Source of the DNA: Obrimoposthia wandeli
Taxonomy: Eukaryota
Reading direction: 5' to 3'
NCBI GenBank assembly: GCA_977020255.1
Contig: CDROCS010001558.1
Coordinates: 372,001 to 436,000 of the forward strand
DNA length: 64,000 nt
In this document: piece after piece, positions 7,217-64,000 of the stretch
How positions within the stretch are numbered: position 1 is the first letter of the stretch
Layout: every line of letters begins with the position of its first letter
Notes under the pieces: generated by a model
Told to the model about the DNA's origin: nothing
The model's input: only the letters and a program-made list of their open reading frames with translations
The model's database searches: none
Program-made: the position numbers and the translations under genes

Positions 7217-7297
7217 CCAACAATATAGTGCCTAAATGTCTATATATAGTCATTTTTAGTCAAAATGACATTAAATGGCTTAAAATTACTCATCGAA

Positions 7298-16895: not shown

Positions 16896-17384
16896 ATGAA
16901 GGAATATATCATAGATTTTGAGGCTTTCGTTAACAAAAATTGTGATTATATTATAAAAGAATTATGTATTATGGATGTAGGCGACGTTTTTCATCCTTTG
17001 CATTTCATATTTCACATAGATATCCCGTTTAAAAGTTTATATTACAAGAAAAAAGTTACTAATTTATATCTAACTAATTACTTTCATTTATTAAAATGAA
17101 AAGAAGGACATAAGGCTTTTTGTGAAATATGTATTTTCGATACAATAAAATCTAATTTTGATATAGAAAATGGAATTTTTTATGTTTTAGATGAAATGGA
17201 TGGCAAAAAGTATAAGACTTTAAAAAAATATTTTCCTAAATTGAGATTGAATACTTTAAATATTTCACGTGATCATCTATTAAAAATTCCACGAAATATT
17301 TGCTGTCCATATCGTAGTCATGGTGACCATTGCGCATATAAAAAATGTTTAAGTCTATCTTATTATTATTTGACATGTAGATAA
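16896..17384 (+). pseudogene. DEDD-exonuclease-like Polinton accessory ORF, copy A
   Basis: MKEYIIDFEAF...YIIKELC (ExoI-like DxE start) and C-terminal CPYRSHGDHCA. Premature TGA at 17097-17099 where copy B has TGG. Confidence 0.6.
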
Positions 17385-17538
17385 ACAATTCTTCTAATTG
17401 GAGAAATTCATTATTTAAAAATTCGATTTTTCATCCAATTGCAAATAAGCCTTTTGATTGGAGGAATAAAAATATTTTTTTTAACCAATAACATATAAAC
17501 AATCCTTCTCAGTGGAGGGATAAATTCAATTTTTTAAT

Positions 17539-17580
17539 CCAATTGGAAAAGAGCATGTGTGCATAAATTTTAGTATATAA
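17539..17580 (+). promoter_or_regulatory. CCAAT plus TATA box upstream of the spliced Cys/acidic-repeat gene (second copy TATA 19085-19091)
   Basis: CCAAT 17539-17543 and TATATAA 17574-17580, 41 nt before ATG 17622; conserved in the duplicate. Confidence 0.6.
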
Positions 17581-17621
17581 GCAAACACTTTCTTCATTTA
17601 AATCCTCGACAATTTGAAATA

Positions 17622-18449
17622 ATGACTATGGTAAGAATCTATACTTATTATTTCTTTATTAATATTTATTATTTCAGATTACTTGTATCCTGTTTCCAGC
17701 ATATTGTGGTGCTTCGGCTCTGCATGGAGGAGAGACCTGCATGGAGATAATGTCCGCCTACTATCGGACAAAGTCTAGCGGGCTTCAATTCTGCGTCTGC
17801 CCCTTCTGCAGAACAATGGAAGAGAATGAGTTTCGAGACTTCTTCGGTGAACATCGAGTTCACCTATCCTGTTTCACGGCCAACAACAAGAAGAGGGATA
17901 TCGTGCAATTGGTGCGCGATTCGCAGGCCGCTCCAGCTACTGCTCCAATTCCAGTTGCAGTCGATCAACCCTTTTACGGTCCTGCCATTGGTCCTTCTCT
18001 CCCGGCTCCTGATTCTGCTGCTGCCCCATCCACTCAAATGTCTAACAATGAGTGGATGATCGACATCTCCGAAGAAGATTTTGAGGAGTTGGCACCAGCA
18101 ACCCAATTCTCGAACAATGACTGGATGGAAAATATCACCCAGTCAGATTTCGAGATGGAGCTGCCTCAGTGGAGCGATAACTCCTGGTTGGAGACCATCG
18201 AGGAATCCGATTTCGTCGAGATAACGGACAACAGCTGGATGGATTCCGTCAATGAAGAGGACTTCCAACCAGCTACAGTTGGATTGCCTTCATTAGGTAT
18301 TTTTTTATTATTATTTTTATTATTATCTTTTAAAATTGTAATTATATTTATATTAAAGTAATTATATATATTTTATTTTTATTTTTTATTCAGGAAATAC
18401 CGTGATACAATCGTCATCCGCTACGACAGCTATCCGAAGTAAGAAGTAA
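17622..18449 (+). CDS. Spliced Cys/His + Trp-acidic repeat protein, copy A (truncated by the duplication breakpoint)
   Basis: Exons 17622-17630, 17678-18296, 18394-18449; 47-nt and 97-nt GT-AG introns keep frame; four [ND]NxW[ML]xx[IV]x[EQ]xDF repeats. Confidence 0.7.
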
Positions 18450-18932
18450 GAATATATCATAGATTTTTAGGCTTTCATTAACAAAAATGAGGATTATATT
18501 ATAAAAGAATTATGTATTATGGATGTATGCGACGTTTCTCATCCTTTGCATTTCATATTTCAAATAGATATCCCGTTTAAAAGTTTAGATTATAAGAAAC
18601 AATTTACTAATTTATATTTAACTAATTATTTTCATTTATTAAAATGGAAAGAAGGACATAAGGCTTTTTGTGAAATATGTATTTTCGATACTATTAAATC
18701 TAATTTTGAGATTGAAAATGGAATTTTTTATGTTTTAGATAAAATTGTTGGCAAAAAGTATAAGACTTTAAAAAAATATTTTCCCAAATTGAGGTTGAAT
18801 ACTTTAAATATTTCACGTGATCATCTATTAAAAATTCCACGAAATATTTGCTGTCCATATCGTAATCATGGTGACCATTGCGCATATAAAAAATGTTTAA
18901 GTCTTTTTTATTATTACTTGACATGTAGATAA
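18450..18932 (+). pseudogene. DEDD-exonuclease-like Polinton accessory ORF, copy B
   Basis: Duplicate of 16896-17384; start lost and the DxE Glu codon changed to TAG (EYIIDF*AF); remainder open. Confidence 0.6.
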
Positions 18933-19132
18933 ACAATTCTTCTAATTCATAATTTTCATTCAATTACAAATAATTCTTTTGATTGAAGGAATAAAAAATA
19001 TTTTTTTCGATCATTTAACATATAAACAAGCCTTCTCAATTGTTTTAATCCAATAGGAAAAGAGCATGTGTGCATAAATTTTAGTATATAAGCAAACACT
19101 TTCTTCATTAAAATCCCCGACTATTTGAAATA

Positions 19133-20812
19133 ATGACTATGGTAAGAATTTATACTTATTATTTCTTTATTAATATTTATTATTTCAGATTACTTGTATC
19201 CTGTTTCCAGCGTATTGTGGTACTTCGGCTCCGCATGGAGGAGAGACCTGCATGGAGATAATGTCCGCCTACTATCGGACAAAGTCTCGCGGGCTTCACT
19301 TCTTCGTCTGCCCCTTCTGCAGAACAATGGAGGAGAAGGAGTTTCGAGACTTCTTCGGTGAACATCGAGTTCACCTATCCTGTTTCACGTCCAACAACAA
19401 GGAGAGGGATATCGTGCAAGTGGTGCGCGATTCACAGGCCGCACCTGCTCCAATTCCAGTTGCAGTCGATCAACCCGTTTACGGTCCTGCGATTGGTCTC
19501 CCGTCTCCTGATTCTTCCCCATCCACTCAAATGAATAACAATGAGTGGATGAACGCCATATCCCAGTCAGATTTCGAGATGGAGCAATGGAGCGATAACT
19601 CCTGGTTGGAGACCATCGAGGAATCCGATTTCGTCGAGATTACTGACGACATCTGGATGGATTCCGTCAATGAAGAGGACTTCATTCCAGCTCCAGTTGG
19701 ATTGCCTTCATTAGGTATTACAGTAATTATTCACCTGTAAGGGTATTCATTAAAGCATGTTTTTGAGAGAGACCGACACCGAATCACTTATAGATGCATT
19801 ATTTAAAAGTCTCACATGTAAGAGTACAGTCGAATATTCAAACAAGAACTTAAAATCCAAAAAAAAGAAGATCAACAATAACAAAAAGAAAAGATCACCA
19901 ACAAAACAACAAATATGCAAAACAAGAATCAGATTCTCCAACTCAAAGAAATTTTCGCTTGTACTCTCTTTTGAAGCCACGGGGCGTGATCATCCAATTT
20001 GTTTCGAAGAAAAATAGAGGTAATAATTTTTAAAAATATATTTAATTTTTAATATATTTATTTCAGCAGCATCGTCCTCTACAACAGCCGCTTCTTCGTT
20101 GGCAATGTCGGCTACTACTCCAAATGCAGCATCTACAACTACGGCAGCACTTACTACAGCAGCATCTACTACATCAGCTGCGATTGCCTCAACATCGGCA
20201 GCATCGCCAATAGCAGCACCTTCAACCTCAGCTGCGTTTGTGTCAACTGTTAATATAAATAGTTGTATTCCCGTTCAATTAGGGGGAGGTTTGTCAGCGA
20301 CTGTAGAAAGAAAGAGGCGAGACCAATTTCTTAATAAGGTCCCACCAAAAAAACGTAGAGAAAACGGTGCTACTATAGAGTATCACCTAAATAATAAATA
20401 TTTTATAGTTAAGGTGCCATTAGGAAATGAAAATTTATTAAACGTAGGTGTAGATTCAAATATTGAAAATCTTTTAAAATCAGAAGTGACTAAATTAGGA
20501 CAGGCTAAGGTTCAATTTTGCGCAACAGTGCATTTTAAAAATGTCAATGAGGAGACTAAAACTTGGGTAATTTCACATAAAGCAACTGTTTTCTATGCTA
20601 ATTTTGTAACTGAAATTGGAAGAAACCTAGATGAAAAATTTGCTAATTATAGCGAGTTAAGTAGTGGATGGAATCTAGTTAGAATTCACGATGTTAGCTT
20701 TGTTCTAACAAAGTTCACTGACATGATATATCTTACATTCCTTCACCTAGATCTCTTCAACTTTCACGTTCCATTGTTAACGTACAAAATACTGATATCC
20801 CAGTTAATGTAA
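19133..20812 (+). pseudogene. Spliced gene joining Cys/His domain, Trp-acidic repeats and Ala/Thr linker to a Polinton pPolB N-terminal region (truncated)
   Basis: Exons 19133-19141, 19189-19714, 20067-; phase-1 intron 19715-20066 joins in frame. The 3' exon has KVQFCATVHF...SELSSGWNL.RI and, after a frameshift, SYIPSPRSLQLSRSIVNVQNTD, matching the pPolB N-terminal GSGW...SYI.LP......AIIN..N.D motif. Confidence 0.7.
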
Positions 20813-20886: not shown

Positions 20887-23127
20887 TTAATTTTGCTCGA
20901 ACATAATAAAAAATTCCATTGGTTGTCGACGAGGTTTGATATTTATTGGAGTACATTCAGTCAATATTCTATGTTTTAGTACCTCAGTTTTTGCTATGTC
21001 CCATTTATCTTTCATAAATATATTTCTAAATTCTTTACAAATTGGTACGACTTCCTTCATATTTTCGGTACACGTTTTCAAAAAAAGATTCCAACGATCA
21101 TCTTGACTTACTGACAAACCAAATTTATTTTCTAAATTATTTACTTCATTTATTAATCTTTCATTGATGTTTTTCACGGAACTCAAACGATCAAAATCGG
21201 CTAATTTAAAATTAAACTTTTCCAAAATATTGATTCCTAAAATTATGCTCGGTTTAATTTCTTTTGCAACATAGTAAAATCTACCTATGTTTTTATTTTT
21301 ATGTTTTAAAACTATATTTAATGTACCTAATATTTCCAATCTACTTCCATTAGCACATGAAACGTTATTTTCATTCATAATCTTATTCATACTACAATTA
21401 GTTATATCTAAAACATTTTTACTTATTACACTTATTTTAGCACCAGTATCTAATAAACAACTTATTTTTACATTATTCAACTCAATGTTAATGAACGGTT
21501 GGCCATCGCTATTATCATCACCAACAGTTAAAAACTTGAATCATATTTTTTGTTAATTAAAAAACATCATTAACTAAATCATTTTCAATAAAATCTACAT
21601 AATCATTATTTATTTTAATTTTTTACCATTCTCAGTATCACATAAAACATTACTATTCAAACTATTTAAATCAAACTCACAATCCATACATTCTTTATCA
21701 CAGTCATACTTAATTGTCTTCAAATTATTTACAAAACTACTTACATTAGATTCAGGGCTCCGATCATTTCCCCGTTTGATGGAGCCAACTCGTTTTCCGC
21801 CTGGCTGTGATTCTGTTTTTCCACAGTAATGTAGTCATCGATGACAGCAACTGGCTTCTTAATCTGGTCAGATCCTTGGTATCTCTGCTGATTTCTTAGC
21901 TGATGGACTGAAACATAATCTCGCTAGTATCTTCGCTCTTGTCCAAAACTGCCATTTGATACTTGCTGATCTCGCTGATATATTTGCTCTCGTCTTAATC
22001 TTCCATTTGGTACTTGCTAATCTCGCTGATAGCTATAGTTTTGCATGTATCCTTTATTACCTTGATCAAGTTTCCGGTAGCATTAGTTGATCGTATGTCC
22101 ATTTCGTCCGCAGAATGAACTATGATTGTGAGGACATTCTCGTCTAATATGTCCAACCTCATTGCAGCAATAACATTGTCGTCGCTCATAGTTTTCATTT
22201 ATCTTTGTCTTTTCAAGCCTTATCTGAGCTTATCCTTGAGTTAGCTTCATGTTCATTGGATTTCGATAAGCAGGTCTTCCATTTTCCACAATTCCAGCAT
22301 AAGTTCGATTATTTAAAGAAAATATCGGCTTTTCAATTATTGACTTCTTATTTATTTTTCTTCCAATTTCTTAATCATATCCTTGATAAATTTTGTTGGA
22401 GTATGTCCTTTTTGTTCTGTCCATTTCTTCGTTGCTTGGTTTTGGTTTCATCTTCAAAATGTCACCAGTGAGTTCGAGTCGGTTCATTTCTTCTGACTCA
22501 TCATCGAGACAGAATTTTAGTAAGAATTCTGTTAATTTGGAGGACGTAATCTTATGTCGCATTACATTCTCCACATTCTTCTCGATACGCTGAATAAAGG
22601 TGTCGACTGAATCATTACCTTTCTTGTATTTCAAGGCATTGAATAGGTCTGCTGCTAAATCTTGTCAAATGCTTCTTTAAGATTATCTTCAGAATTCTTC
22701 TTGTCATATGTTTAGTCATATTTTTCATGACATTTCTCGGTCATAAATACTCTAATCAGAATATTTCTTTGGCTGACATCGAGTGATATCATTTCAAAAT
22801 CTGACCTGATCTTCGGCAGGAACTCTTCGACTTCTTCTGATTCTGTATATTCTTTTGGTTGTGGAATAAGCTTCACGAGTTCTTCTATACTCGGCTTCTT
22901 TGATTCTTGTTGCGTGGTCGCCATGTTAAGTCTGTATAATACTTCAAACTATATTAAACACCAAATCTACCGTTCTCGTTCTGTGTGCTCTTTTAAGTAA
23001 AGCGCACTGTGGGGAAATGCAAGTAGTTGTGCAATAAGATGAAGAAAATTAGTTATGCAATCATACAGGTCAAACAATCAATTAATTAGTTTATTGTGAG
23101 ATTATAATTATAATTATTTACCTAACA
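20887..23127 (-). mobile_element. Ty3/gypsy LTR retrotransposon 5' remnant (short LTR candidate, gag, protease, start of RT)
   Basis: gag-like fragments 22924-21995; aspartic protease LLDTGAKISVI (ORF 21480-20887) followed by KHRILTECTPINIKPRRQP. TG...CA 120-bp LTR candidate 23008-23127 with a polyA signal on the minus strand. Truncated before the RT core. Confidence 0.75.
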
Positions 23128-32619: not shown

Positions 32620-35600
32620 TGCTACCTGGACAAAAATCAAAGCGGCAGAAAACAAGAACTCTTTCTCTCGCAATACCCTACACATACATTTCCTACATAC
32701 TTCGTCTTCTCCTTTCCTTCCACCATCCATTTTACTACCCGTACCAATCCATCTTGTCCTTTTATTAATTCTAGTATTCTTGCCAATGGTCATTTTTCTC
32801 GTTCATTTTTTCTCTCCAATATCAGCACGACATCGTCTACTTTTAATGGTTCTTTCGTTTCCCACCACTTCTGTCTAACTACCCACATCGGCACGATCTC
32901 CTTCATCCATCATTTCAATAATTGCTCCACCAGACCTTGTAACAACTTCCACCGATGTTTTACATTATTCGCGGACAGTTCGCAATTTACCGTACCTCTA
33001 GGTATCAAAAACCTATTTGGCGTCAATGAAGTAATTTCCTTATTATCTTGACTCACATAACTCAATGGCCTAGAATTTACAAGACTCTCAACTTCAATTA
33101 ACATCGTATCAAATTCTTCATCCGACAATTCGCACTCTTCATCACTCTTTTCATCGCCCTTTTTACCGATTTTACCATTATCTCAAATACACCACCAAAG
33201 TGAGGACTACCTGGCGGATTGAAAACCCATCTAATATCATTATTTACTAACTCTGCTTTAAGTGCATAAGTATCGAACTTAACTTGTTCTATTAGATTTG
33301 CTGTTCCCACAAAATTCAAACCGTTATCCAACAACATTATTGTTGGCCTTCCTCTTCTTCCATGAACCTTTTAAAAGCTTTGACGAATGCATCAGTGTCC
33401 AAACCATATCCCATCTCCAAATGTACCGCTCGAGTCTGTGGACAAGTAAATAGACAAACATACCTTTTTGCTCTTACCTGTCTCCGACCCTGCTTTGTCA
33501 AAAAAGGTTCTGCAATATCCACACCGACTCTTACAAACGCCCTTAGTGGTTTTTCCAATCTGAACTGAGGTAATGGTGCCAACATATTTTGCATATAGGC
33601 TGCTTTTGCTCTTTTGCAAATCACACATTCCGTTTAAATTTTTCTAATTAATCGTCGAGCCTTTAAAATCCAAAATCTTCTCTGTAGTAGACTTAATATA
33701 TGCTGAATTCCGGCGTAGTGAAAATTCCCATCATGTAAATATTTCACTACTAACCTTGCTAACCATCCTTCACCTGACAATATCACTGAGAACTTACTAT
33801 CATAATTAAAAAAATTCAGCATAATTAATCTGGACTTTGTTCTTATAATCCCTCCTAAACTTTAAGATTTTGCTATTTTTAAGACTTCCCCAGTCTTCAC
33901 TAAACTTTTTATTTATATCTGAAAATATTTCATTTGATCTTCTTTGATCAGCTTACTAATACTGAGTTCCATTTCTTCAACGGGTAATTCTCCTTTTATC
34001 CACACTTCTTTTTTCTTTCTACAATTATCTATAAATCGATCCATCCAAGCTCTTATCCTTTTTATTTTTGTCAATACTTTTCAATTTCTAGTATTTCTTC
34101 ATGTACGGCTTTCACCTCGTATGTCAATAAGGTACATACTTTCTTCTCAGTATCCTCAAATTTCTCAAATTTACTATTTATCGTCCACATTTCTTATGTT
34201 TTCTTTAAATATTCTGGTCCTTCATACCACTTCCTGATAGAGACACATTCATTTACACTTACCCCTCGCGATAAAATATCCGCTGGGTTTTCTTTTGTCG
34301 GTACATGTTTCCATTGATTTATATCTGTTGTTTCTTGGATCTTTCCAATTCTTTTTGCAACAAATGGTTTATAATTTCTCCCTTGTTATTATATCCACCA
34401 CAACACACCTTCACTATATGACCATAATATCACCTTCTTACAATCTTCATTCCACGATCTCGCTATAACTTTTGTTAGTTTAATCCCTTCACATGCGGCC
34501 ATCAATTCCAATCTCGGAAAACTCACTGTTTTCAACGGTGCTACTTTCGATTTCGCTGCTATTAACGCAACTTTTAGTTTCCCTTTATTCCTTGTCCTTA
34601 GATATGCAACGGATCCATAAACTTCTGATGAAGCATCTACGAAGACGTGAATCTATCTCTCTTTATCCAGTTATATTCCGACCCATCTCGGAATTTGAAC
34701 TTGGTATAGTTCTTGCATTGTGAAAGCCACATCATTATATCTTTCTTTAAATCTCCTTCTATCTTTTCATCTCAACCTAATCCATTTAACCATACATTTT
34801 GCATTAATATCTTCGCTTTCACAGTAAACGGACTCACGAACCCTAAATGGTCAGATACTGTTGACAAAATACTTAGGAATTCTCGCTTACTAATATTGAT
34901 ACCGTAATCTACTTTGGTTTTGATCATAAAATAATCTTCTTGAGGATCCCACTGAATTCCTAATGTCTTAACGTTCTTCATCTTTAATACCTTTGCTTGA
35001 TATAATAATGGAATCTGCTTGTTGATTTCTTCAATACTAGTTATCCATTTTTTGGCTTCCATTTTCGCTCCTTTCAATAATTATTTTACTTCAGACATTG
35101 TACTCTTAGCTATATCTTCTGTATCTACAGAGCACAATGTATCATCCATATAGGTATTTTCCAAGATCAATATCGCACTATCTGGAAACTTATCCTTGTA
35201 TCTATCTGCATTTGCCCTCGATACCGTTTGTGCCTAAAATGGCGATACATTTAACCCGAACACTATCCGTTTATATTCATATTCGATACATTTCCTTCTT
35301 TGTCGTTCCCTAAAAAAACGTAACCATTTTCGATCCGAACGATCTACCTTTACTTGTAAATACATTTCCGTGATATCACAAGTCAATGCAATTCTTTTGT
35401 CTCGAAATCTCAGAAGTATTTCCATCAAGTCTCCCTGTAGCTTTGGCCCGCTATCAATGAAATCATTTAAACACTTGCCGCAGTCTTTTGCGGCGGCGTC
35501 GAAAACTATTCTTACTTTAGTAGTATTTCTATCCCGTTTTACCACTGGTAAATGCAGTAAATACAATCGCGTCTCCTTCGTATCTTCTTTCTTAAGTGGT

Positions 35601-36480
35601 CTTATGTACCCTTTTTCTATTTGATCATCAATGATCTTTGAGTAATCTTCTGATAATTCATTATCTTTATTTGACCTTATTTGCAAACTCTCCAATCTTC
35701 TCATTGCCATTTGCTCATTAACTTGAAGTTCCATAATCCCATTTTTCCATGGAATCTTCACTTCATATCTTCATTCTTCCATTGCCATCGCCTTTACGCT
35801 ATTCTCGTAACTCAGTTTATCCGTCTTGTTCATTATTTTTGTATCGTCACAAAGGTTTTCAACTTCCAAAAATCGACGTAGCTGACTGTCTAATTATGTT
35901 CCCCAAATAACTTCTGATGAAGTTTGTTTGGTTTTTGTATGTCCTTCCAAAATTTGCTCGACCTACACATGTCCACTCTAGTGGTGTCCTTCGTGCTATT
36001 GGATCTTTAGATCCTCCCCATCGTTCTTCAATGCTCCTATGCATTTCAATTAAATCTGCTTTTATTAACATTTCGACTTTCTTTCCATTATCACTTACCG
36101 AGAACATGATATTTTGTCGGCGTTTCCAGCTCTTGTTGATGCTGTTCCAATCAACTACTCGTAAGTCACCCGCGACTTCTTTTATCGCTAACGCCTGTAT
36201 TCTCCTTCTAAATGATTTTTCTAAATTTTGAATTAGGAATGACACCCTCTTGCACTCCTAATTCTTAATTTGTCCGCCGATAACTCCTACTGGTGTGCTC
36301 ACTGCTTCGCCTTCTAAACCTAATTAATCAGCAGCTGTCTTGCTAATGCAGCTTACCGTACTCGCATCATCCAATAAGGCGTTCGTCCGTTTCTTATAAT
36401 TACTGGTACCGTTCTTAACATCACAGTTGAATTGTGATCAACGTGGAAATTTGTTTGATCTTGGATGCAATAGCCAATTA
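32620..36480 (-). pseudogene. BEL/Pao pol (protease, RT, RNase H, integrase), many stops and frameshifts
   Basis: NALLDDAST (protease); LHLPVVKRDRNTTKVRIVFDAAAK...GPKLQGDLMEILLRFR; TYMDDTL (RT); CLFTCPQTRAVHLE; DNGLNFVG; FNPPGSPHFGGVFEIMVKSVK; IEVESLVNSRPL; LTPNRFL. Confidence 0.92.
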
Positions 36481-38930: not shown

Positions 38931-39243
38931 TTTAAATATAATTTTTGAACGACGCCTTATGAAATTTTTGATTATTTCCGAAATCGCTTCCAACTATATC
39001 ACTCCATGACATTTCTCTGTTAATCCCGTAATAATTATTTATATGTATAAAGTTTAAAAAATTTAAGTTTTTTTTATTTATTCTTTTCAAAATTACAATA
39101 CCCGAACCCCTAACAAAATCCCCTCGTATACTTTCCCGGGGCAATTTGAAGGGGCCACCACAACCTAACAGATTAACCTCAACAAATTCCGACTCAAATA
39201 CAGCCGTCACACTCAGTCGATCACCAAGACCTCTCTGTGCCAA

Positions 39244-39895
39244 ACCACCAACCAAAACTTCCACAGATTGTATATCATCTATACTTATTTTAGCTTCTTC
39301 CAACATTTTCGAAAGAGTCTCCGTAACCTCCTGTAATAGAGAAGTTGAAAGATTCTCGAAATCATCTCGCTTTATTCGCATATGAACATCAACATCATTC
39401 ATGAAACATTCAATATTCATTGGGATCTCAGTGGAATTTGCACTCACCAATTTTTTACGTTTTTCACATTCCTGAGTGAGACGAATATACGGTTTCTTTC
39501 CATCAATTACATCCAACTTTAAAGTGCTCTCAAAGTTGATCTTCGCCTGCTCATAATTAACACGGTCAAAGCCTCTTCCATCCACATATGCACACGTACT
39601 TGCAACTACTTCATTTTAACTTTGTTAAAAGCAACAATATTTGCTTGCAATTTTGAGTATCCCATGTCAATAAATGCTACTTGTCTCGGTTTTTGTTCAG
39701 CTTCTGGAAAATCCGGACAGTAGATACCATATGAAACTGCAGATGCAGTTGTATCATGGATACGTTTTATACAGTTAAGATTCGCAGTTTGTGCAGCATC
39801 TAGAACCGCTCGACGTTCGCTATCAGTAGCAGCATTAGGAACTTTGATCACGACATCTACTACTTTTGTTGATAGATTCATTTCAGCAACTTTTC
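39244..39895 (-). pseudogene. Captured Hsp110/HSPA4-family (Hsp70 superfamily) nucleotide-binding-domain fragment
   Basis: VVDVVIKVP...ERRAVLDAAQTANLNCIKRIHDTTASAVSYGIY..DFPEAEQKPRQVAFIDMGYS...GRGFD...RLTQECEKRKKLVSANSTEIPMNIECFMNDVDV...DIQSVEVLVGG. These are Hsp110-type features. Intronless, with one frameshift. Confidence 0.92.
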
Positions 39896-40298: not shown

Positions 40299-42615
40299 TA
40301 TACCTTCATCTGAAATATTCAATTTTAAGGGGCATAATTCACTTTTTCAAAGGCAACGTATAGCAAATATAAATATAGAAGACATACCGGGGAGGACGAT
40401 TAAATGGAGCAATTGGAGCAGAAACATAGTAATCCACTGGAAATTGGAATAGAGTTTGAATGTGTTCTGATTGGTTGATACAAAAAATATTTGCAAGGAG
40501 ATGGAATAGAGCAATGAAATAGAACAGACACTATAGTAATATTGTGTGGATGCGTGTGTGCGTGTGTGCGTATGTGTGGATACTTATAAAAATATATGTG
40601 CAAAAATTTGCAAGTTGATTGAATAGAGCAAGGAAATAGAACATAGATACTATAGTAATATTGTGTGTGTGGATACTTACAAAAATATATACTCACAATA
40701 CTCACAAAATATGTACAAGGTATTACCTACAAAAATGTATCTAATTACAAAACATGACATTATTACTCTATCTTTATTATTATTTATATTTTCAATTCCA
40801 TATTGTATATCGATATTGTTTATCAAAAGATAATAACAACTATAGCTTTCTGATAAAAATCGAAGAAACTGAAGACATAAGAAGTGAAATTAGGATATAT
40901 CTACTAATTATGTTTTAAACAAGAATTATTGATGTATTCGATATATGTGGAGAAGTTCGGGAAATTAAAGTAAGTGAGAAATTATGGTTAATTAGAGGTA
41001 AAAGTAAAATATGTATAACTTATTCGATATATGTTTGAAAGTAGGGAAATTGGATGATGGTTTATGTATGAGTTTCAGACGGAAATTAGAAGGTCCTAGA
41101 CCTGAAATTAAAGCATAGATATTAACAATTTAGAAGGAGGTTAGAAGGAAAAAATGACATAGAAGACAAATTGATGGTTCAGAGGATGCTTCTAGAAGAT
41201 AAATTAACAAGATGGGTTCGAGATTATCGATGTTAACCCAATTTCAGCTCGGTTTAGAAGACAAAATAATAAGATGTTTAAACAATTATTCAGCAGATTC
41301 AGAGCCGAAATTTATGATATTTAGGTGGTTAAGATATTTAAGATATTTAAGATATGTGATATTTGTGAGCATTGCTTGGAATTTTTGATTACCGAAACAG
41401 TGTACATTGATAGAGTGTGTATTCGATTCACTTCAGTTTTAGTAGTCTTATTGAAAGTTTACATTTATCATTGTGCGAATAGTAAAGGGATAATCAATAA
41501 CAATCCTAAATGGGATGAGAAGATCAAAAGTAATCAATAAAGGGGAGAAAGTACGAGAGTGAATCTATTTTTTGCTTTATCTCAAAATGGAGGCGGATAT
41601 GTTTAGAAGACATATGACACTTATTAGGAAATTTGATTGTAACACCATACTTCTCTATCATTTCTTATATGTAAACTGAATCGTCTAAGATCGTAACCTA
41701 GGAAAAGAGGATCAATCCGATTTCGAAGCAAGAATATATCATTGATGTCGATATCATTCATATACGAAATATACTATAGTTTATAATATTATGAAGAAAC
41801 TTGTTTTAATTATTATAAAATAATTCTTACAAACTATTTGAAAAATATATTTTTAAACCACATTGCAACTATTTGCAAGTCATATGCAAAATCTTTGTTC
41901 TATTTTTAGAAACATTGTAACATCTATTCTCATTGGTTAATTTGAGCCTCAGTTTTATATAAAGGAAGAGATATTTCATTAATATTGTTAAACATGAATG
42001 CAATTACCTATTTATACCACTGTACCAATACTTTTCATGGATATGATATGCATTTTCTCAAGAAGCATATCCATTACATTTTTATATATCCGGTATCACT
42101 GAAAAAAATCAAATTCGATTACTTAATATTTGATATTAATAAATCAGATATGGAGAGAATCAATTAAATACTTATAAAGATCAATTGCGAGTATCATCTG
42201 CAAGAACCCAAATTCATTATCAAAGGAAATGATTCTATTTTCAGAAATATCAATGAATCAAAACTAGATGTCTGCCCAACTGGATTACAATGGAATATTA
42301 ATATCAAGATACAAGGAGACAAGATCGAACCCAGTGGATTGGTGACTCCGGTTTGGAAAATATTTTATGGATATAATAAATAAATGTTTTATATTTCGTA
42401 TCTTTATTTTCTCCTTTATAATTATTTATTAATATTTAATAAGAAAGAAGCCTGACAGTTATGAATATATTGTTAGAAATATTGATATTTATTGAATCAG
42501 ATGATTCGTGAAACGATAGTAATGAATAGTAACATGAATACCTCAATAAAATGGAGAGAAACATAATAATCTTTAGAAAATTAATACCTAACCTAATGAT
42601 GATTCAATAATCAAT

Positions 42616-43800
42616 AATATCCCGTGTCAACGTCACCATAATATCCCGTGTCAGTGTCACCATAATATCCCGTGTCAACGTCACTCTGATATCCCGTGTC
42701 AACGTGACTCTAATATACCGTGTCCAAATCACCCTAATATCCCGTGTCAGCGTCATAATATACCGTGTCAACGTCACCATAATATCCAGTGTCAACGTCA
42801 CTCTGATATCCCGTGTCAACGTGACTCTAATATACCATGTCCACATCACCCTAATATCCCGTGTCAGCGTCATAATATCCCGTGTCAACGTCACCATAAT
42901 ATCCCGTGTCAACGTCACCCTAATATCCCATGTCAACGTCACCCTAATATTCCGTATCAACGTCACCCTAATATCCCGTGTCAACGTCACCCTAATATCC
43001 CATGTCAACGTCACCCTAATATTCCGTATCAACGTCACCCTAATATTCCGTGTCAACGTCACCCTAATATTCCGTGTCAACGTCACCATAATATCCCATG
43101 TCAACGTCACCCTAACATCCCGTGTCAACATCACCCTAATATACCGTGTCAACATCACCATAATATACCGTGTCAGCGTCACCATAATATCCCTTGTCAA
43201 TATCACCCTAACATCCCATGTAAACATCACCCTAATATCCCGTGTCAACATCACTCTGATATCCCATGTCAACATCACCCTAATATCCCGTGTCAACATC
43301 ACCCTAATATCCCATGTCAACATCACCCTAATATCCCGTGTCAACGTCACCATAATATCCCGTGTCAAAATCATTCTGATATCCCATGTCAACATCACCC
43401 TAATATCCCATGTCAACATCACCCTAATATCCCGTGTCAACATCACCATAATATCCCGTGTCAGCGTCACCATAATATCCCGTGTCAACATCACTCTGAT
43501 ATCCCATGTCAACATCACCCTAATATCCCGTGTCAACGTCACTCTGATATCCCATGTCAACATCACTCTGATATCCCGTGTCAACGTCACTCTGATATCC
43601 CATGTCAGTATCACCCTAATATCCCGTGTCAACATCACTCTGATATCCCGTGTCAACGTCACTCTGATATCCCATGTCAACATCACTCTGATATCCCGTG
43701 TCAACGTCACTCTGATATCCCATGTCAGTATCACCCTAATATCCCGTGTCAACATCACTCTGATATCCCGTGTCAACATCACCCTAATATCCCATGTCAA
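42616..43800. repeat. 24-bp minisatellite, ~49 copies, at the 5' end of TFIIE-alpha intron 5
   Basis: Unit ATATCCC(G/A)TGTCAAC(A/G)TCAC(C/T)(C/A)T(A/G); a few 21-nt variants; begins 27 nt inside the intron. Confidence 0.97.
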
Positions 43801-43827
43801 GGTAGTTACCCAAGCAGCCAGACTAAC

Positions 43828-44117
43828 CTGTGACCACTGTCGAGGAAACTAGACGATGTTAATGCTCCAGGAACGCGTCCCGGGGCCATCATCTGTGTAG
43901 GGGGACTCGCTGCCCTAGATTTACCATCGCCAGAATTGACCGTGTCTATAACAGAGCCGGTACCGATAAGTTGTCTCGCCCAGACAGGATTTTCTTTGAT
44001 ATGCTCACTGCCGTCCTTGAAGATCTGGCTCCAGCTGGCGTCGCTGCGCAGATTGACAGCGATCTGCTGCTGCTGCTCGATGGCAGGACCTCCTGATTCC
44101 CCCGCTCCAAGTTTGTT
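43828..44117 (-). CDS. GTF2E1: TFIIE-alpha exon 5
   Basis: Acceptor CTGCAG; contains IKENPVWARQ (cf. AKERPIWLRE); donor AG|GTTAGT, phase 2. Confidence 0.8.
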
Positions 44118-50978: not shown

Positions 50979-51268
50979 ATATCCCAATCTACCGAGGAAT
51001 AGACCACAAGGCAGCAGATTCCCAGTTATCTCCAGTCTATTTTTCAATCTATTTCCTGATCTCGCCAACTCGAGCAGACTAGACTAGGAGACGAGGATCC
51101 AGTGATTGCGGAGAAAATAAAGGATATCCCAATCTACCGAGGAATAGACCACAAGGCAGCAGATTCCCAGTTATTTTCAATCTATTTTTCAATCTATTTC
51201 CTGATCTCGCCAACTCGAGCAGACTATACTAGGAGACGAGGATCCAGTGATTTCGGAGAAAATAAAGG
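50979..51268. repeat. ~145-bp tandem duplication
   Basis: ATATCCCAATCTACCGAGGAATAGACCACAAGG...GGAGAAAATAAAGG at 50979 and 51124. Confidence 0.9.
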
Positions 51269-51334
51269 TATAAAGACCGAAAATTTAAGGAAGTTTTTGC
51301 CTTTATTGAGTAAAGATAAAATAAAGTTGTCCAA

Positions 51335-52190
51335 ATTAAAAGAAGATTTTGCCCTTCATTTCGTATTGATAATTTAAAGCTTGTCCAAGATAAAATAAAG
51401 TTTTTCCGATTTAAAAGAAGATTTTGCCCTTCATTGCGTATTGACAATTTAAAGTTTGTCCAAGATAAAATAAAGTTTTTTCCGATTTAAAAGAAGATTT
51501 TGCCCTTCATTGCGTATTGACAATTTAAAGTTTGTCCAAGATAAAATAAAGTTTTTCCGATTTAAAAGAAGATTTTGTCCTCCATTGCGTATTGACAATT
51601 TAAAGTTTGTCCAAGATAAAATAAAGTTTTTCCGATTTAAAAGAAGATTTTGCCCTTCATTGCGTATTGATAATTTAAAGTTTGTCCAAGATAAAATAAA
51701 GTTTTTCCGATTTAAAAGAAGATTTTGCCCTTCATTGCGTATTGATAATTTAAAGTTTGTCCAAGATAAAATAAAGTTTTTCCGATTTAAAAGAAGATTT
51801 TGCCCTCCATTGCGTATTGATAATTTAAAGTTTGTCCAAGATAAAATAAGTTTTTTCGATTTAAAGGAAGATTTTGCCCTTCATTGCGTATTGACAATTT
51901 AAAGTTTGTCCAAGATAAAATAAAGTTTTTCCGATTTAAAAGAAGATTTTGCCCTCCATTGCGTATTGACAATTTAAAGTTTGTCCAAGATAAAATAAAG
52001 TTTTTCCGATTTAAAAGAAGATTTTGCCCTCCATTGCGTATTGACAATTTAAAGTTTGTCCAAGATAAAATAAAGTTTTTCCAATTTAAAGGAAGATTTT
52101 GCCCTTCATTGCGTATTGACAATTTAAAGTTTGTCCAAGATAAAATAAAGTTTTCCAATTTAAAGGAAGTTTTCGCCCTTCATTGATTAT
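51335..52190. repeat. 75-bp tandem array, ~11 copies
   Basis: Unit AAAAGAAGATTTTGCCCTTCATTGCGTATTGACAATTTAAAGTTTGTCCAAGATAAAATAAAGTTTTTCCGATTT; highly homogeneous. Confidence 0.97.
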
Positions 52191-53539
52191 TCGATTTTCC
52201 AATTTAAAGGAAGTTTTGCCCTTCATTGATTCTCGATAAATTAAAGTTGTCCAAAATAAAGGAAGTTTTTGAAAATCTATAACTTGAGCTTATTCTCGAG
52301 TTAGAGGAACAACTCTAAAAATCTCGATCCCCCTTAGCGTAAAATCGATACGTGGTTCATCCCCACTTCTTGTAGAGACTCACAGAAGTCCTTTAGGAAT
52401 TTTATCATACTTTTTAGAAATACGTACATAAACGTATTGTGGTGTTAGTTACGTGAATTTTGAATAAACAATTTCCTACATTAGAACAAGTTGTTTTTAC
52501 ACCCTTCAGACTAAGAGACGTCAAATCAAATACCTTCAGATAGTACAAGAGATTAGGCAACCATAAAACTAAGTAGGCCACGACCAACTTTAAGACCTGC
52601 TTCTAATCGAACTCACGTTGGGGTCCTCCGCACATAAGAGGCTCTATACCAAGTTTCGTATAGAAACCCCAACACATGCTTAGAAGTCACCTAAGCTACG
52701 TAATGTTAAACAATTTCTATAGAAATGCCTCTTACGTAAGGGTCTCGAATGTCTAGTGAAAATTTTTGATTATGCAGTTGTATTCTTATAATTATACGAA
52801 CGATACCCAAGTATGGTCATGGACCAACAACGACAATTCAGAGCTAGATTCAGATCAAAGTATTTATCTGCGCTTGGAGGAATGTTTTTAGTGTTCTAGG
52901 CGATACCGAGGAGAAACTGCAGCTGGTCTTCCTTCACGCTCAGCCTATTGTTGAAGGTTTTGCCAAGCACCACGGCTCATTTCGCTAAGTCAATTACTAG
53001 AGCCAGTGACCCCACGATTTGATATGACTCCTCGAAATTCACTTTGCCGTCCCACTCACTGGGATCGACTTTCAAAAATTCTTTCGACAAACCAAGGCAA
53101 TCGAAAAGCTACAGAGTTTACTCCGTAAAGAACTGCACTATCATATTTTCACTGGAACCTGATGCAAAGACCGATTAATTTGGAGTATTGATGTTCCTGA
53201 CCCGTTTGTAAAGAAAAGAAGCTGAGGTGAAGGCAGTGTGAGTTTCCAACCTGGGTGCCGACTGCTCATGGACCAGCTCCAAAGCAACCTCGTATCTCGG
53301 ACTATCCTCGACTTTCTTGTATCAGGCTTCCTTGGGGACGACTTTCCACTTCTAAAGTACACCGTCGACGCGGTCCTCGAATCCAATATACCACAGACAG
53401 TCAGGCACCGGCTGCACCTAGAAGAACTCTTGAACCTCATTGCATATTGAAGACATTGCCTTGGTGTGTGCAATATCAAATTGGTTGTCAAACCCATCAA
53501 ACCCATGTTTTTCTTCTGAGTTTTACTCGTTCTATCGCA

Positions 53540-57500: not shown

Positions 57501-57591
57501 AGCAATTGTTGTCAGTGATGTCCTAGTTTTATCTTGTGCTTCGCGGTTGGAAAATTGCCCGCGAAGTAGGAGATAACACAGAAGAAATGAC

Positions 57592-58942
57592 TGTTATATG
57601 TAGAATAGTTACGTATGACTAATTTCCAATACTGTGCTTCTTCCAAAAGTCAGCTTCGCAAAATGTTACAACTCTGGGCAATAAATTCGATCTCCAATAT
57701 TGTGCCTCCTCCAAAAGTTAGCTTTGCAAAATGTTACAACTCTGGGCAATAAATTCAATCTCCAATATTGTGCCTCCTCCAAAAGTTAGCTTTGCAAAAT
57801 ATTACAACTCTGGGCAATAAATTTAATTTCCAATATTGCGCTTTTTTCCCAAAGACTAAAAATGCAAATCTTGTTCTGACATATATTTGTAATACTTCAA
57901 TAAATTAGGAAATTTGTTTTTTGTAACAAATCACTATCGACGATTGCTATTTATAGCAATCGCCCAGTCTAAATGCCAAGAGCGGCGGCAGCAACCGTGT
58001 GCTGATTCAATCGACGATTGCTAAAAATAGCAATCGCCCAAAAGGGAAAAACAACAAGTGTTGCCAGACCGGGACCAAATCAGACACACAGGCCCGGTAA
58101 AACAACGTTGGCGAATTTGTGACATATACAAACACACAGATTGCCCAGATAAAATTCGGCACTTAAATTTTTAGAAAATAGACCGAGAAAAGAGAGATAG
58201 GTAGATTATAGCAATTAAAGATTAAACTAAAACATCTAAAAGTAAAATTGATGATATTATGTGTTTGTATATCTCTGAGGTTCCTGGAGTTACACGGAAG
58301 AAGGTGGGTAGAAGTTACACTGACTAGCTTATTGCAACTATGATACACAAAAGTCGACATACAGGCTTCTGGCGAAGAGTTCTTTAGTGACAATTTGTGT
58401 TGGTCATCTTAAGATGAGATGGGCTAGGTCAGTAGAAAATCAGGGTTGTGTTATGCAGAGAAGTAGACAGAGACAAGGACATAGGGTTGCAGCTAGAACT
58501 GTTTCACAACCCAGGCTGCACCGGCACAGGCAGTCACGCAGTCGACCCATTGGTTTTGATGGCAGCGGTAGACTTGGGTTTTCTCGGGTCTGAGGCGTAC
58601 TGGCCAATACACACAGGGGCGGCTGGGCAAGCGGGAAATTTGTTGTCAGGGAGGCAACTGCTTCCGAGCCGGGATGATTGAAGGTTGTTGCCTCTCCGGA
58701 TGATGATGAAGGGAAAAGGTCTGCTGCTACTGGGCGGTAATATTTTTATGATAAGAATCCATTTTATCAACCGCTTTTTTCGCCGCCTTCCTGATGAGCC
58801 TGGCAAGGCGAAACGGGCTAACAACCCGTCGGAGGCTGAAATTTGAAAAACCTCCCTAATTGTGGGCACTTTAGATTAGTTTATAAAATGTCAATTTAAA
58901 TTGACTTTCTTAATTAATTTAATTTTAATTAAAGACCCAACA
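57592..58942 (+). mobile_element. Solo-LTR-like element carrying a hammerhead ribozyme (copy 1, 1351 bp)
   Basis: Termini TGTTATAT...CCCAACA; 4-bp TSD TGAC (57588-57591, 58943-58946); internal 68-bp tandem repeats (57626-57850); hammerhead 112 nt from the 3' end. Confidence 0.85.
58785..58836 (+). ncRNA. Type I hammerhead ribozyme
   Basis: Stem I GCCTTC/GGAGGC; core CTGATGA; stem II GCCT/AGGC with loop GGCA; GAAA; stem III CGGG/CCCG with loop CTAACAA; GTC cleavage triplet (cut after 58830). Confidence 0.95.
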
Positions 58943-59159
58943 TGACTGCATCCTCTATCGATTTTTTCTGCCTATCCAATATTAAGTGAACCACATACAC
59001 ACATGTTATTTTACTGCTTCTATCTTTGTAGTGGTGCCAATTTACTTGTGTGTCTGCAAATTTATGTAATGTCACTTATAATAGAAAAATTAATATAAAA
59101 TTGTTTGGCATAGAGAGATTTGTTATAATTTCTAAAACTACTTTTTTAAATTGCTACAG

Positions 59160-59460: not shown

Positions 59461-61972
59461 TTAGTTGGAAATAATAATCAAATATAACACATGCCCAATC
59501 TTTTTTGTTTATTTCCATGCCCAAAAAAATAATAAAAATCTGCCTTCCTCACTTAATACTAAAAATAGTGAGTTGCATACGCCGCTCTTCAATTTGTGTC
59601 AATTGGTATTTCTTTTTATTTTCAGTCAATTTTTTTCCTTTAGTATATTGCGTAGTATAAACTACTTACTTTCTTTAAGAACTTATTGGTGGGTACATTT
59701 TCTGAAATATTTATTTTTATTTTTAACACAGTTGTATTTTGCTTTTTTATCTCCTTATACTTTATTTTAATTTGACAAACAAGATTTTGATATTATATCG
59801 AACTGGAACTTTGACTTATAATTTTGATTTAGATTTATTCATTTTGGGTATACTAAGTTTGAACTTTTTAAAATTTTCCGTTATTTTTTTTCGCACATTT
59901 CTTTTTTGGCAAATAAAATACTTTATGGAATCAGGAACTAATTTTCCATTCAAACATTCAATCTAAAATATATTAACTCAGAAGTACTATAAATAAACTT
60001 AAAAATAAGATTGTTTCAATGATTAACACTGTTTTATTCGTGAGTTTTAAAATATAATTCCATAGATCTTTATTTAAAATAAAAATTTATAATTAAACAG
60101 CATATTCATTTATTTGATATAAATATCAATTGTTACTTAAACAAATAACTTATTTATTATATATTTTACTTTAAAAAATCATTAATAATTAAACAGATTT
60201 TTACTCACAAAATCTGTAAAATATTTAATTTGTTTATTATATTAAAAAAATACAATATAATTACAATAATGTTTACAATAAAATATTACAATTTTTGAAA
60301 TATATAATAATTATATCTACTTACAAGTTACAGTAGATTAACACTTAAACTTTCAATATATTTTCTTTTAAAGGTCATAAATTAAATTAATTAATACCAT
60401 GTGTGTAAGAAAATGCAGATATTTCAAAATAACCTTGTTGTAAAAATCAATTTAAACATAATTATAATTTTTTAACTATAATATTTTACAATAATAAAAT
60501 TGTGAAACCATTTTATGTTTGTCAAAATGTTACTAATAATTAAGAACCAAAAATAAAATTAAATACATGTTATTTACAATTTAGTAATAAATTATTATTT
60601 ATACTTTTCAGCAGTAAATAATCATACATTTTGTACCAATTTTTTAGTTAGATATTTGACCAATTGTTGCCTTGCAAAAAAAATGATATAAATCTATGGT
60701 TTTATAATGAAAATATGCTTAAATCTGTGATTTTACAATACTTTTAAGGTTTAAATATCATATGATACCTTAAAAACAGTAAAATAATGTAAAAAAATAT
60801 TCAGTATATTTGTATACTATCTTTTTTATTACTGGGATCATAGTAATAGAAACAAAATTTTCAATTTTTACTCATAACTATTACCTAAAGTGGTCAAACG
60901 ATCGATTATAAAGAACATTGAGAGCTTTTATATTTCAATACTTTCTTTTACATAAGATTCTCTAAATCTGATACGAATACGCCACTTCAAAGTTTTCAGT
61001 AAATACTGATTGACTGCTGATTGACTAAAGAAAGCCTACATGATGGTTTAATTAGTAAGTATTACATGGTAGGTAAACAAGTTGATAAGAATAGAGCAGA
61101 TAAGTCTAAGTAATATAGTAAATAATACATTTTAGAGTCTTTACATATAATACTTATATTAACTTATTTATTATTTAAATTTAATACATATAACATAGTT
61201 ACAATAAAAGCTCAGTCTAGCACACGTCATTTTCGCACATGCTGCACCGGACAACAGAATGACAAGAAAATACAAAGGCATTGTACGAAGAACACTTTTG
61301 TTTTATTTTTCGCTCAAGCTCCAAAGTGCTCTGGCAACTTTTCCGTTGTTGTGGCAGTCAGTTACAGTTGTTCCTTAATAGGTGACTCGACGCAAACCAA
61401 CTTGGTTGATGCCCGAATCATTGCACAAATGTTGGTCAGTCGTGGTCGTCTGTTAACAAGTGGCGGCACATCTCATAGCCAAGTTTAACTTTAAATTTGT
61501 AGTCAGTTTCATTGTCGGCTGAGGATTCGTTGTTGAAGATCATGCAGCGTAGCATGCAGTATTCAAAAGAGGAAATTCAGTGCATAAAGTAATCGCTAAC
61601 ATTTGTATTTTGTAGCATATGTTTGGAAAAACTTGTCCAGAATATCCACTTCGGATTTAGTGAGGCTGTAAAATTGGACAACCGGGCTTTTACCTTCCAG
61701 CAAGTTTTGTTCAGACCAATGTTGAGATAACAGAAGAAGAACAGTTAACTTTTTCTTGTTTCAGAATGAACATAGCGTATTGAAAATGTTGTCCTTGTAG
61801 AAGTAAATTGTGTCACCGTGTGTCCTGTTCACTGAACTTTTTGCTGTATGTGGAATTTCATGTCGATTCAATTTTATGGTTCCTACTATAGTCGTTTTTG
61901 AGCAAGAAAACGCTAGAACAGTTTTAGTGACACAAAGAAGTTATCAGCTGTCGACGTTTCAAAATACATACG

Positions 61973-63059
61973 TGTTGGGATTTAAAATTAATTAATTTTT
62001 GTCAATTTAAATTGACATTTTACAGAGGTCCCCACAATCAGGGAGGTATTCATTATCAGCCTCCGACGGGGTAAAAACCCCGTTTCGCCTTGCCAGGCTC
62101 GTCAGGGAGACGGCTAGATAAGTGGTTTTTACCACAAAAGTTTTCTGCCCAACTACTACCACCTCTCCAGTCAGCAGCAACAACACCGGCTGCACTATCT
62201 CTGACGCAAATGTCACTCCCTCGCTCATCTCCGTCATCCATGAAGACAACCTTTAAGTACAGCGATCTCTCTCTCTCCCTCTCTCCTCCACCTTCCTCTA
62301 TCGTCATCCAGAGAAACTGCATCATCATCATCATCAGCAGCAGCAACATCATCATCATTCACACATTTCGGGATTTCTCTTCTGATTCAGCGGCCACATT
62401 GGCTATGCGTGACAGTGTGTCTCAACTACAGCAGTAACTATAGTGGCAGCAGCATCAGTCGATAATGTGGTATTGACCTGCATCCATGTGGGCGACTTAT
62501 CTCCCTGGCGCCATTATCTCTCCACAACCGCAGCTATCTCCATTTGCTACCAGCTATCTCTACCTGCCAGATCTTCTCCTCGTGTCGGAGTCGTGCCTAC
62601 CGGTAGCGGTCTTAAAATATGTATATGGCCTACCAAATTCCCAACTGTGCAGATGCAGTGCTGTATGTCTGGGATTAAATATAAATCCTGTATAGCAGCT
62701 AAAAATAAACACACAAAAAATTTACTTTGAATTTTCGACAAAAATTATTGAACATTGAATATTCTGCGAAGTATATACCAAAAAATTACAAAACTATTAA
62801 ATCAAATTGAAACTATTTGAAATTATTTGATCAACAATTTGGAAACTATTAAATCAATTTGAAACTATTTGATCAACAATTTGGAAACTATTAAATCAAT
62901 TGAAAACTTTTTGATCAACAATTAGCAAACTATTAAATCAATTTGAAACTATTTGATCACCACGGAAACAAGAAACAATTTCATTAATATTGTTGCTATT
63001 ATTATTTGATCATCAATATAATTTTGTTTGATTATTTGTTGCTTTGGAACAATATAACA
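61973..63059 (-). mobile_element. Solo-LTR-like element carrying a hammerhead ribozyme (copy 2, 1087 bp)
   Basis: On minus, termini TGTTATAT...CCCAACA; 4-bp TSD TACG on plus (61969-61972, 63060-63063); 42-bp tandem repeats (62791-62960). Removing it restores the piggyBac frame VMELRMYFETSTADNFF. Confidence 0.88.
62059..62111 (-). ncRNA. Type I hammerhead ribozyme
   Basis: Minus strand GTCTCC CTGACGA GCCT GGCA AGGC GAAA CGGGG TTTTTA CCCCG TC GGAGGC: intact core, changed stem I/III sequence with pairing retained; cut after the C opposite 62065. Confidence 0.95.
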
Positions 63060-64000
63060 TACGTAGCTCCATTACTATTGCCAAAGGAATTGAGGATAAT
63101 ACAGCCTTCTTTTGAAGATATAGAGTGTCATAGCTGATGTAAACCAGATATATCAAGGAGAATGCATTGTTGTTGATCACCCAATATATCTTAATGCAAA
63201 ATTTACCAGCTTTTGTAGGTATGCATTGTCTGAAGCTTACACATTCATGAAATTTGATAAACTGATCATCCACGGTCAATAATGGTTCTCCGACGAATAG
63301 TTGCTTTGAAGAGCATCCTTGAGAAGAATGACAATGTTTCTTATCGCAGCAATTTTTTTACGATTTATCGTGACGTAAAGTACCATTAAAACAGAAAGCA
63401 GTTTTCAACTGCTCAAATTGTTAAACACACATCGTCACATATGCTTTGAATCCACCAAAATTGAATAGTGATATGAATGTATTTTATTTCAAAATCTAAA
63501 ATACCTTGATAAAAACTGTTTCAAATGTTTTGAAAACCATATCAAACTTCAAGGTAAAGTAGAAAATTGATCAAAAGTGTTTAATAATAAAATATTTTAT
63601 GAAAATTTACCGTTTTACAACATTCAGTCTGTAATTTATTTTAAAATATATCAAGTAAATTCAACACTTGTTAAAATTATAATGTCAAATGAAATCTGCT
63701 ACATATAGCATAGATCCTATATCAACTGTATTTAAATATGAAAAAATACTAGGAAAAATACTAACGGCTGTTGTTAAGATAAAACAGTCAAAAATTATGG
63801 TTGAATTCCCTGAAAGTTAATAATTGCATTAATAAAACCATTGATCAAAGTCATAAATGGAGATAAAATAAACCTATCAAATAAAAGACATAGTTAGAAG
63901 AAAAGGTTTACTCCCTATTTACCAGACAGTTTATATAAGTTAGCATTTGTTAGGTTCCAAAACGGACAGTTAAATTACGATAATAAATAAAATTGGCTAT

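Follow-up and report, generated by a model that had tools for sequence, protein, structure and literature searches.

We identified a type I hammerhead-ribozyme motif in the LTRs of a coding, enveloped retrotransposon of Obrimoposthia wandeli, on the strand antisense to the genes, an arrangement that we did not find described in the searched literature. Two solo LTRs carry it in the window (the whole 64,000-nucleotide stretch of DNA that was analysed). The reading that we prefer, at a probability of about one half, is that the predicted cut removes the cap from backwards LTR transcripts, limiting silencing or interference.

Two solo LTRs in the window

Solo LTR 1 (1351 bp, TG..CA) occupies 57592..58942 on the minus strand and is flanked by the 4-bp TSD TGAC (57588-57591 and 58943-58946). 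It derives from a gag-env-pol Ty3/Gypsy element, and the element sense is the minus strand. Solo LTR 2 (1087 bp, TG..CA), at 61973..63059 on the plus strand, is bounded by the 4-bp TSD TACG (61969-61972 and 63060-63063). It belongs to a sister subfamily, in which the internal region is 79-88% identical to that of family 1.

Both hammerheads described in the earlier note are present, and the core pattern has two matches in the window (shuffle mean 0.00). Each copy has the type I core, with CUGANGA, GAAA and an NUH triplet arranged around a three-way junction and stem I open. Copy 1 (58782..58839, plus strand) is antisense to the element of LTR 1. It begins with GCC (58782-84), and stem I (58785-90 with 58831-36) leads to CUGAUGA (58791-97), stem II (58798-809) with its loop GGCA (58802-05), GAAA (58810-13) and stem III (58814-28). 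The predicted cut follows the GUC ending at 58830, and an invariant UGA is found at 58837-39. Copy 2 (62056..62114, minus strand) is antisense to LTR 2, with the predicted cut between 62065 and 62064. The distance from predicted cut to LTR edge is 112 nt in copy 1 and 92 nt in copy 2.

Stem II and its loop GGCA are identical in both copies, as had been claimed, and GCC stands ahead of stem I in both. Downstream of each hammerhead we also recovered CCTCCCT(A/G)ATTGTGGG. The CCUCC competitor segment with its small hairpin lies at 58851..58866 on the plus strand (CCUCC at 58851-55) in copy 1 and at 62031..62046 on the minus strand in copy 2. The 16-bp palindrome GTCAATTTAAATTGAC was confirmed at 58890..58905, 38-53 nt from the LTR 5' end, and at 62001..62016 (two matches in the window, compared with 0.14 after shuffling). 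These features had been taken for a shared 3' module. Given the LTR boundaries and the strand of the two copies, however, what was taken for such a module is the initial ~160 nt of U3, at the 5' end of the LTR, read antisense.

A TATA-like box within an inverted repeat (57947..57956, minus strand) probably serves as the sense promoter and would lie close to the U3/R boundary, and the cut site falls between this box and the LTR edge. The 28-bp inverted repeat occurs twice in LTR 1 (57938-57965 and 58012-58040), and one occurrence contains the box. A 68-bp tandem repeat is found close to the U5 end of LTR 1 (57621-57841). The middle of U3 is completely different between subfamilies.

The carrier element

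A genome search with copy 1 gave 40 scored matches among 2,390 candidates, including several same-strand pairs 13-15 kb apart. In five of the paired regions the LTRs are 99.6-99.8% identical. The carrier is a ~15-kb (14.6-15.1 kb) gag-env-pol Ty3/Gypsy errantivirus, assigned by gene order, length and Pfam domains. Its LTRs start with TGTTGG and finish with ..AACA, and a 4-bp TSD was identified in all three full elements with located ends as well as at both window solo LTRs. In one copy scanned with Pfam we identified PF03732, a protease, PF00078, PF17917, PF17921 and PF00665, which is the order gag, then PR-RT-RNase H-integrase. A class III fusogen (gB-like, PF24664; E 6e-47 and 1e-29) is encoded between gag and pol. 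The gag, gB-like fusogen, protease, RT, RNase H, integrase and 3' exonuclease ORFs of this copy all lie on the strand opposite the hammerhead.

A conserved TGG-led motif follows the 5' LTR; a guessed tRNA pattern for the primer-binding site gave no matches. At the junctions examined (among them locus L032 at ~7230-7268), the 3' LTR is abutted only by a conserved AGGAT (4-6 purines) and not by a long polypurine tract. A short inverted repeat is present 25-35 nt upstream of the 3' LTR, in two sequence forms.

GAG-ENV-POL errantiviruses with an env of the HSV gB type have been reported from flatworms, nematodes and bryozoans (Chary and Hayashi, eLife 2026, PMC13524379). As described there, these elements share with the carrier the gag-env-pol order, the class III fusogen and a high copy number. 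Their size is also similar: coordinates of Smed_errantivirus_1-4 in supplement 1 of that paper give about 14.5-14.9 kb, compared with 14.6-15.1 kb here. The architecture and size of the carrier match those of the gB-type GAG-ENV-POL errantiviruses, of which it is a putative member. The main text of PMC13524379 has no occurrence of the words 'ribozyme' or 'exonuclease'.

The exonuclease ORF (DEDDh-type, PF00929, E 2e-10) is located immediately before the 3' LTR (L032:6167-7003). It is 30-99% identical across subfamilies, compared with 87-94% for pol, and has 139 scored matches at an identity of at least 92%. A 388-aa frame lies between it and the integrase. Relatives of the exonuclease or of the env piece were not identified in the viral contigs searched.

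Extent, position and strand

The hammerhead core pattern has 9,483 matches in the genome, compared with 91 for the reversed control, and the core with exact GCC and GGCA has 6,277, compared with none. We sampled 92 of the first 100 core matches listed (the eight omitted are LTR-pair mates or had already been sampled). Among these, 79 are of the GGCA type, three belong to a branch with loop GUAA, and ten failed the hammerhead parse. An LTR terminus is found downstream of 69 of the 79 sampled hammerheads.

In every one of the ten two-LTR regions examined, the hammerhead is antisense to the genes and lies 92-112 nt from the LTR 5' end. It lies opposite gag/env/pol in five of five family-1 regions and in five of five further regions, one of which (C14) is rearranged; pol in these further regions is 87-94% identical at the protein level. 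Eight of the 13 further regions considered (C1569, C2220, C4059, C17, C10, C6, C34 and C18) are without a two-LTR element of the carrier family and were excluded from the orientation count. The hammerhead is also antisense beside the exonuclease ORF in three partial loci, one with a different loop II.

In LTRs of 719-1351 bp from distant branches, the alignable part is limited to 48-64 nt spanning the ribozyme (four of six pairs), and alignment is lost between the ribozyme and the LTR end. The two closer LTR pairs align across 145-161 nt. Relative to the 3' LTR junction, the ribozyme sits at a constant position a short way inside. LTR ends are generally conserved, and a ribozyme acquired a single time by an ancestral LTR and then copied without function could owe its persistence to lying close to such an end. 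The loss of alignment towards that end counts against this passenger explanation, as do compensatory changes in all three stems around an intact core (see below). We regard it as largely refuted and very improbable.

In a third LTR branch (L230, L234, L244-L269 and L354), the antisense hammerhead lacks GCC, its loop II reads GUAA or AUAA, and a distinct 18-bp palindrome is present. The tertiary module of this branch has been swapped, with position and strand retained. The motif GGCAYTT may have flipped strand between branches; it is also readable as small hairpins.

Hammerhead class and selection on the stems

The cleavage triplet is GUC in 70 of the 79 sampled copies. Searches with the Rfam hammerhead families gave no hits at the gathering threshold; the best was Hammerhead_3, at 21 bits compared with a threshold of 48.5 (E 0.71). 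All three stems vary in a compensatory manner among the 79 copies. Stem I has three such pairs (G-C in 56 and A-U in 20; C-G in 48 and U-A in 26; U-A in 61 and C-G in 10), stem II has one (C-G in 42, U-A in 35), and stem III has one (G-C in 59, C-G in 16). Twenty-two rows with little damage were picked by hand; 97.2% of their cells are paired, and in seven of the 18 pairs both sides change. None of 500 shuffles reaches the covariation score observed in these rows, and controls slid along the sequence are 24-49% paired. Kinship among copies inflates such tests, but the changes are spread over several subfamilies.

Covariation of stems I and III had been claimed from the two window copies. It holds across subfamilies but hardly between those two. 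The 3' strand of stem I, GGAGGC, is identical in both, and the difference in stem I is thus non-compensatory. Among the related copy-2-type hammerheads examined, most of which have GCCTCC, none but the window copy showed the T of GTCTCC. The change in stem III, CGGG compared with CGGGG, amounts to one extra pair. The broader claim of selection on RNA structure is supported by the two-sided changes in the 22 rows and by the hammerhead being the sole alignable LTR segment in distant branches.

An extension of stem I beyond a bulge (TTTC/GAAA or TATC/GATA), also proposed in the earlier note, did not hold up. The helix is kept in ten of the 79 copies, and in eight of 61 distinct copies compared with 5.9 when partners are swapped. 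In both window copies the energy of the hammerhead fold exceeds that of the predicted minimum-energy fold by 3.4-3.8 kcal/mol (in a model that does not include pseudoknots), which counts against activity. In a branch C copy the hammerhead fold is the predicted minimum.

A probable pseudoknot between loop I and loop II

GCC is present in 68 of the 79 sampled copies, and the trinucleotide after stem I is UGA in 76 and UAA in three. Within this sample, GCC and the GGC of the loop do not covary. Support for their pairing comes from hammerheads of the same geometry in phages and, weakly, from a GCT/AGCA subfamily in this genome.

A motif scan of public contigs recovered type III hammerheads with loop I UGAYGCC in seven of eight cases and UAAUGCC in the eighth. 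These phage motifs have loop I URA-N-GCC, loop II GGCA and the same 6-bp and 4-bp stems as the LTR hammerhead. They differ from it in that the loop I of the LTR hammerhead is opened, with GCC before stem I and UGA after it. Because the phage loop I contains UGA although the search pattern did not, we read UGA and GCC as one loop I, opened by circular permutation. The invariant UGA therefore belongs to a split loop I.

Scanning viral contigs with both loops left free gave 66 loci, 49 of them distinct, and 16 passed the type III filter. Of the pseudoknot cells in these 16 hammerheads, 38 of 48 are Watson-Crick (GCC/GGC, GCU/AGC and UUG/CAA); shuffles average 21.9, and none of 10,000 reaches 38. 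In the genome itself, eight copies combine GCU with AGCA, a count that comes without an expected value, and four of these are one old subfamily at three independent loci. One more member of the subfamily retains the U-A pair and one does not. Comparative evidence of this kind makes the GCC/GGC pseudoknot well supported.

Base pairing between the loops of stems I and II is shared with the pseudoknotted hammerheads of Perreault et al. (2011, PMC3088659), where such loop-loop pairings are described as important for the rate. The motif indicates that one tertiary module, UGA..GCC with GGCA, serves both the type I and the type III permutation, in an animal retroelement and in phages.

Loci of the old subfamily are L363, L364, L366, L367 and L369; in L368 the loop has changed without a change in its partner. 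In the phage and metagenome type III motifs (L270-L277 and L283-L348), loop I URA-N-NNN pairs with loop II. These hammerheads are often found directly before a ribosome-binding-like site and a start codon.

The downstream CCUCC segment

CCUCC is complementary to the first five nucleotides of the 3' cleavage product and overlaps a small CCC..GGG hairpin. A product helix of at least 4 bp can form in 33 of 34 distinct branch A copies, compared with 14.8 after shuffling and with 29-34% when the tails of other branches are used. The corresponding counts are ten of 23 in branch B (shuffle 4.3) and eight of 12 in branch C, where the helix has a different sequence and the count is slightly above the shuffle value of 5.9. 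In branches A and C the helix overlaps the small hairpin. We infer that the CCUCC segment may act as a two-state switch for product release.

The palindrome

The exact 16-mer palindrome occurs 4,566 times in the genome, compared with once for the control. It is typical of branch A, where 31 of 46 copies have it exactly and 43 have it within two mismatches. The expectation that it would be conserved in further copies was borne out there but not in branch B (0 of 26) or branch C (0 of 4); among copies without a branch assignment it is exact in three of 16. A different palindrome is found in 18 of 26 branch B copies and a third one in three of four branch C copies. Palindromes clamped by G/C are present in the region in 32 of 46 branch A copies (shuffle 1.3) and 14 of 26 branch B copies (shuffle 0.4). 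It is the palindromic character that is kept across branches, and not the sequence.

The palindrome had been suggested to be a dimerisation or packaging hairpin at a new 5' end made by the ribozyme, as part of the supposed 3' module. Its abundance and the occurrence of different G/C-clamped palindromes in branches A and B agree with that model. The cut RNA is antisense, however, and is not the packaged genome: the ribozyme lies opposite gag-env-pol and the primer-binding motif, and therefore makes no end of the packaged RNA. In addition, branches B and C keep the ribozyme without the 16-mer. We consider this model quite unlikely. A role in dimerisation of the sense genome is possible, as the palindrome is the same there. 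Because it reads alike on both strands, it may be either a U3 DNA site or a sense-genome dimer site, and we treat it as a separate, strand-neutral feature of U3.

Proposed cutting of antisense RNA

Because the ribozyme is on the antisense strand, it cannot process the genome or mRNA. Backwards transcripts, whether from the LTR promoter or from the host, would at the 3' LTR pass the ribozyme first and then enter the coding region. The substrate would be upstream-antisense RNA arising at the LTR promoter or read-through from the host, such as transcripts of piRNA clusters. The GGC of loop II would pair with the GCC before stem I, and the U of UGA would contact the last A of the loop. Such tertiary contacts would permit fast cleavage at low Mg2+. 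The CCUCC segment would then capture the 5' GGAGG of the product, favouring release and making the cut hard to reverse. The capped upstream piece would be degraded, and the uncapped downstream piece would be poorly exported and processed.

In the account of ribozyme cleavage given in PMC6938672, the upstream product is broken down starting at the 3' end, and the 5'-OH downstream product is stable. A simple exonuclease 'torpedo' terminator is thus unlikely, and RNA antisense to the genes could persist. It also counts against the cap-stripping reading that ~90% of the LTR is transcribed before the cut.

The stability of the 5'-OH product, as described in the same source, keeps alive an alternative in which the product itself is the purpose. 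Here the ribozyme would make a defined, stable, uncapped antisense RNA, running from ~100 nt inside U3 into the 3' end of the element, as a regulator of copy number or timing. Resistance of 5'-OH products to XRN2 (PMC6938672), the hairpin that the new 5' end is predicted to form in branches A and C, and the constant position just inside the 3' LTR junction all fit such an RNA. However, it would have no conserved 3' end signal (AATAAA occurs within 600 nt in five of ten elements, at unrelated places), and the same product, when made at a solo or 5' LTR, would extend into host DNA that has no relation to the element. We consider this alternative doubtful.

Cleavage might instead drive cap-independent translation of an antisense protein, a role reported for hammerheads in fungal RNA viruses (PMC13725137). 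Within 3 kb of the 3' LTR ribozyme, we did not identify an ATG-started antisense ORF of at least 40 aa common to the branches, nor any antisense ORF common to the ten elements checked. This makes translation hardly credible and, as the absence of a conserved downstream ORF, also counts against the stable regulatory RNA.

A wider form of the preferred cap-removal reading would be an RNA-only counter-defence of an autonomous enveloped retrotransposon lineage, in which a fast antisense hammerhead in each LTR, together with the product-release switch, cuts backwards transcripts. The 'trap' transcripts of piRNA clusters would also be cut from their cap and poly(A) tail, and the coding region would be poorly converted into silencing RNA. 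We offer this view tentatively, with the odds against it.

An antisense hammerhead in a coding, recently active errantivirus points to another job for ribozymes, the managing of antisense RNA. There is a precise predicted cut site at thousands of loci, and naturally decayed copies can serve as controls. Host transcripts running through any insertion in one of the two directions might be cleaved as well.

Relation to known ribozyme retroelements

Across the sources consulted (PMC4918200; PMC7761336; PMC6431247; PMC7229834; PMC13725137; bioRxiv 10.64898/2026.07.22.740005), the only LTR hammerheads described are those of non-autonomous plant retrozymes, where they lie on the sense strand. Plant LTR retrozymes (Cervera, Urbina & de la Pena, 2016, PMC4918200; PMC7761336) resemble the carrier in having a hammerhead in each LTR, a 4-bp TSD and Ty3/Gypsy-type ends. 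According to the same two accounts, they differ in being non-coding and non-autonomous, with less than 1 kb between ribozymes, whereas the carrier is coding and ~15 kb long. Their hammerheads are also type III, on the strand of the tRNA-primer-binding site, and those of the carrier are type I, on the opposite strand. The full gag-env-pol and the type I hammerhead on the opposite strand rule out the carrier as a plant-type LTR retrozyme.

Type I hammerheads in animals are described from Penelope-like elements, which are autonomous carriers, and from non-LTR retrozymes (PMC7229834; bioRxiv 10.64898/2026.07.22.740005). These share with the carrier the hammerhead type and the thousands of copies. 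As presented in both sources, they are organised as short tandem repeats without LTR, PBS or 4-bp TSD, and their helix III is often weak; here it is 4-5 bp long, in a carrier that is a true LTR element. The LTRs, the 4-bp TSD and the absence of short tandem repeats rule out the carrier as an animal non-LTR retrozyme or Penelope-like element. Hammerheads in the LTRs of autonomous animal Ty3/Gypsy elements were not found in the literature searched, a scope outside which lie repeat databases and subscription journals.

A retrozyme-like cycle has also to be weighed. Two hammerheads on the same strand flank every full element, and antisense RNA cut at both LTRs could be circularised to a ~13-14 kb or LTR-sized RNA, as an intermediate of replication or recombination; the chemistry of the ends would be that on which retrozyme circles rely, as described in PMC7761336. 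However, the primer-binding motif occupies the opposite strand, unlike in plant retrozymes, and five close-spaced clusters look like separate or nested LTRs of different subfamilies rather than tandem arrays of a unit. The competitor hairpin, moreover, would oppose religation by the ribozyme. Such a cycle is unlikely.

Other features of the window

A unit of ~1.5 kb with short ORFs is duplicated at 16902-19740 and is also found at locus L078. A 24-bp tandem array at 42567-43850 is open in several frames, and a 75-bp tandem array is present at 51176-52300. Four frames on the minus strand have presumed identities: we take that at 3824-4930 to resemble a RING-finger protein, that at 20887-21540 a retroelement protease, that at 35234-35770 a piece of a BEL/Pao RT, and that at 38932-39615 a piece of an Hsp70-family protein.
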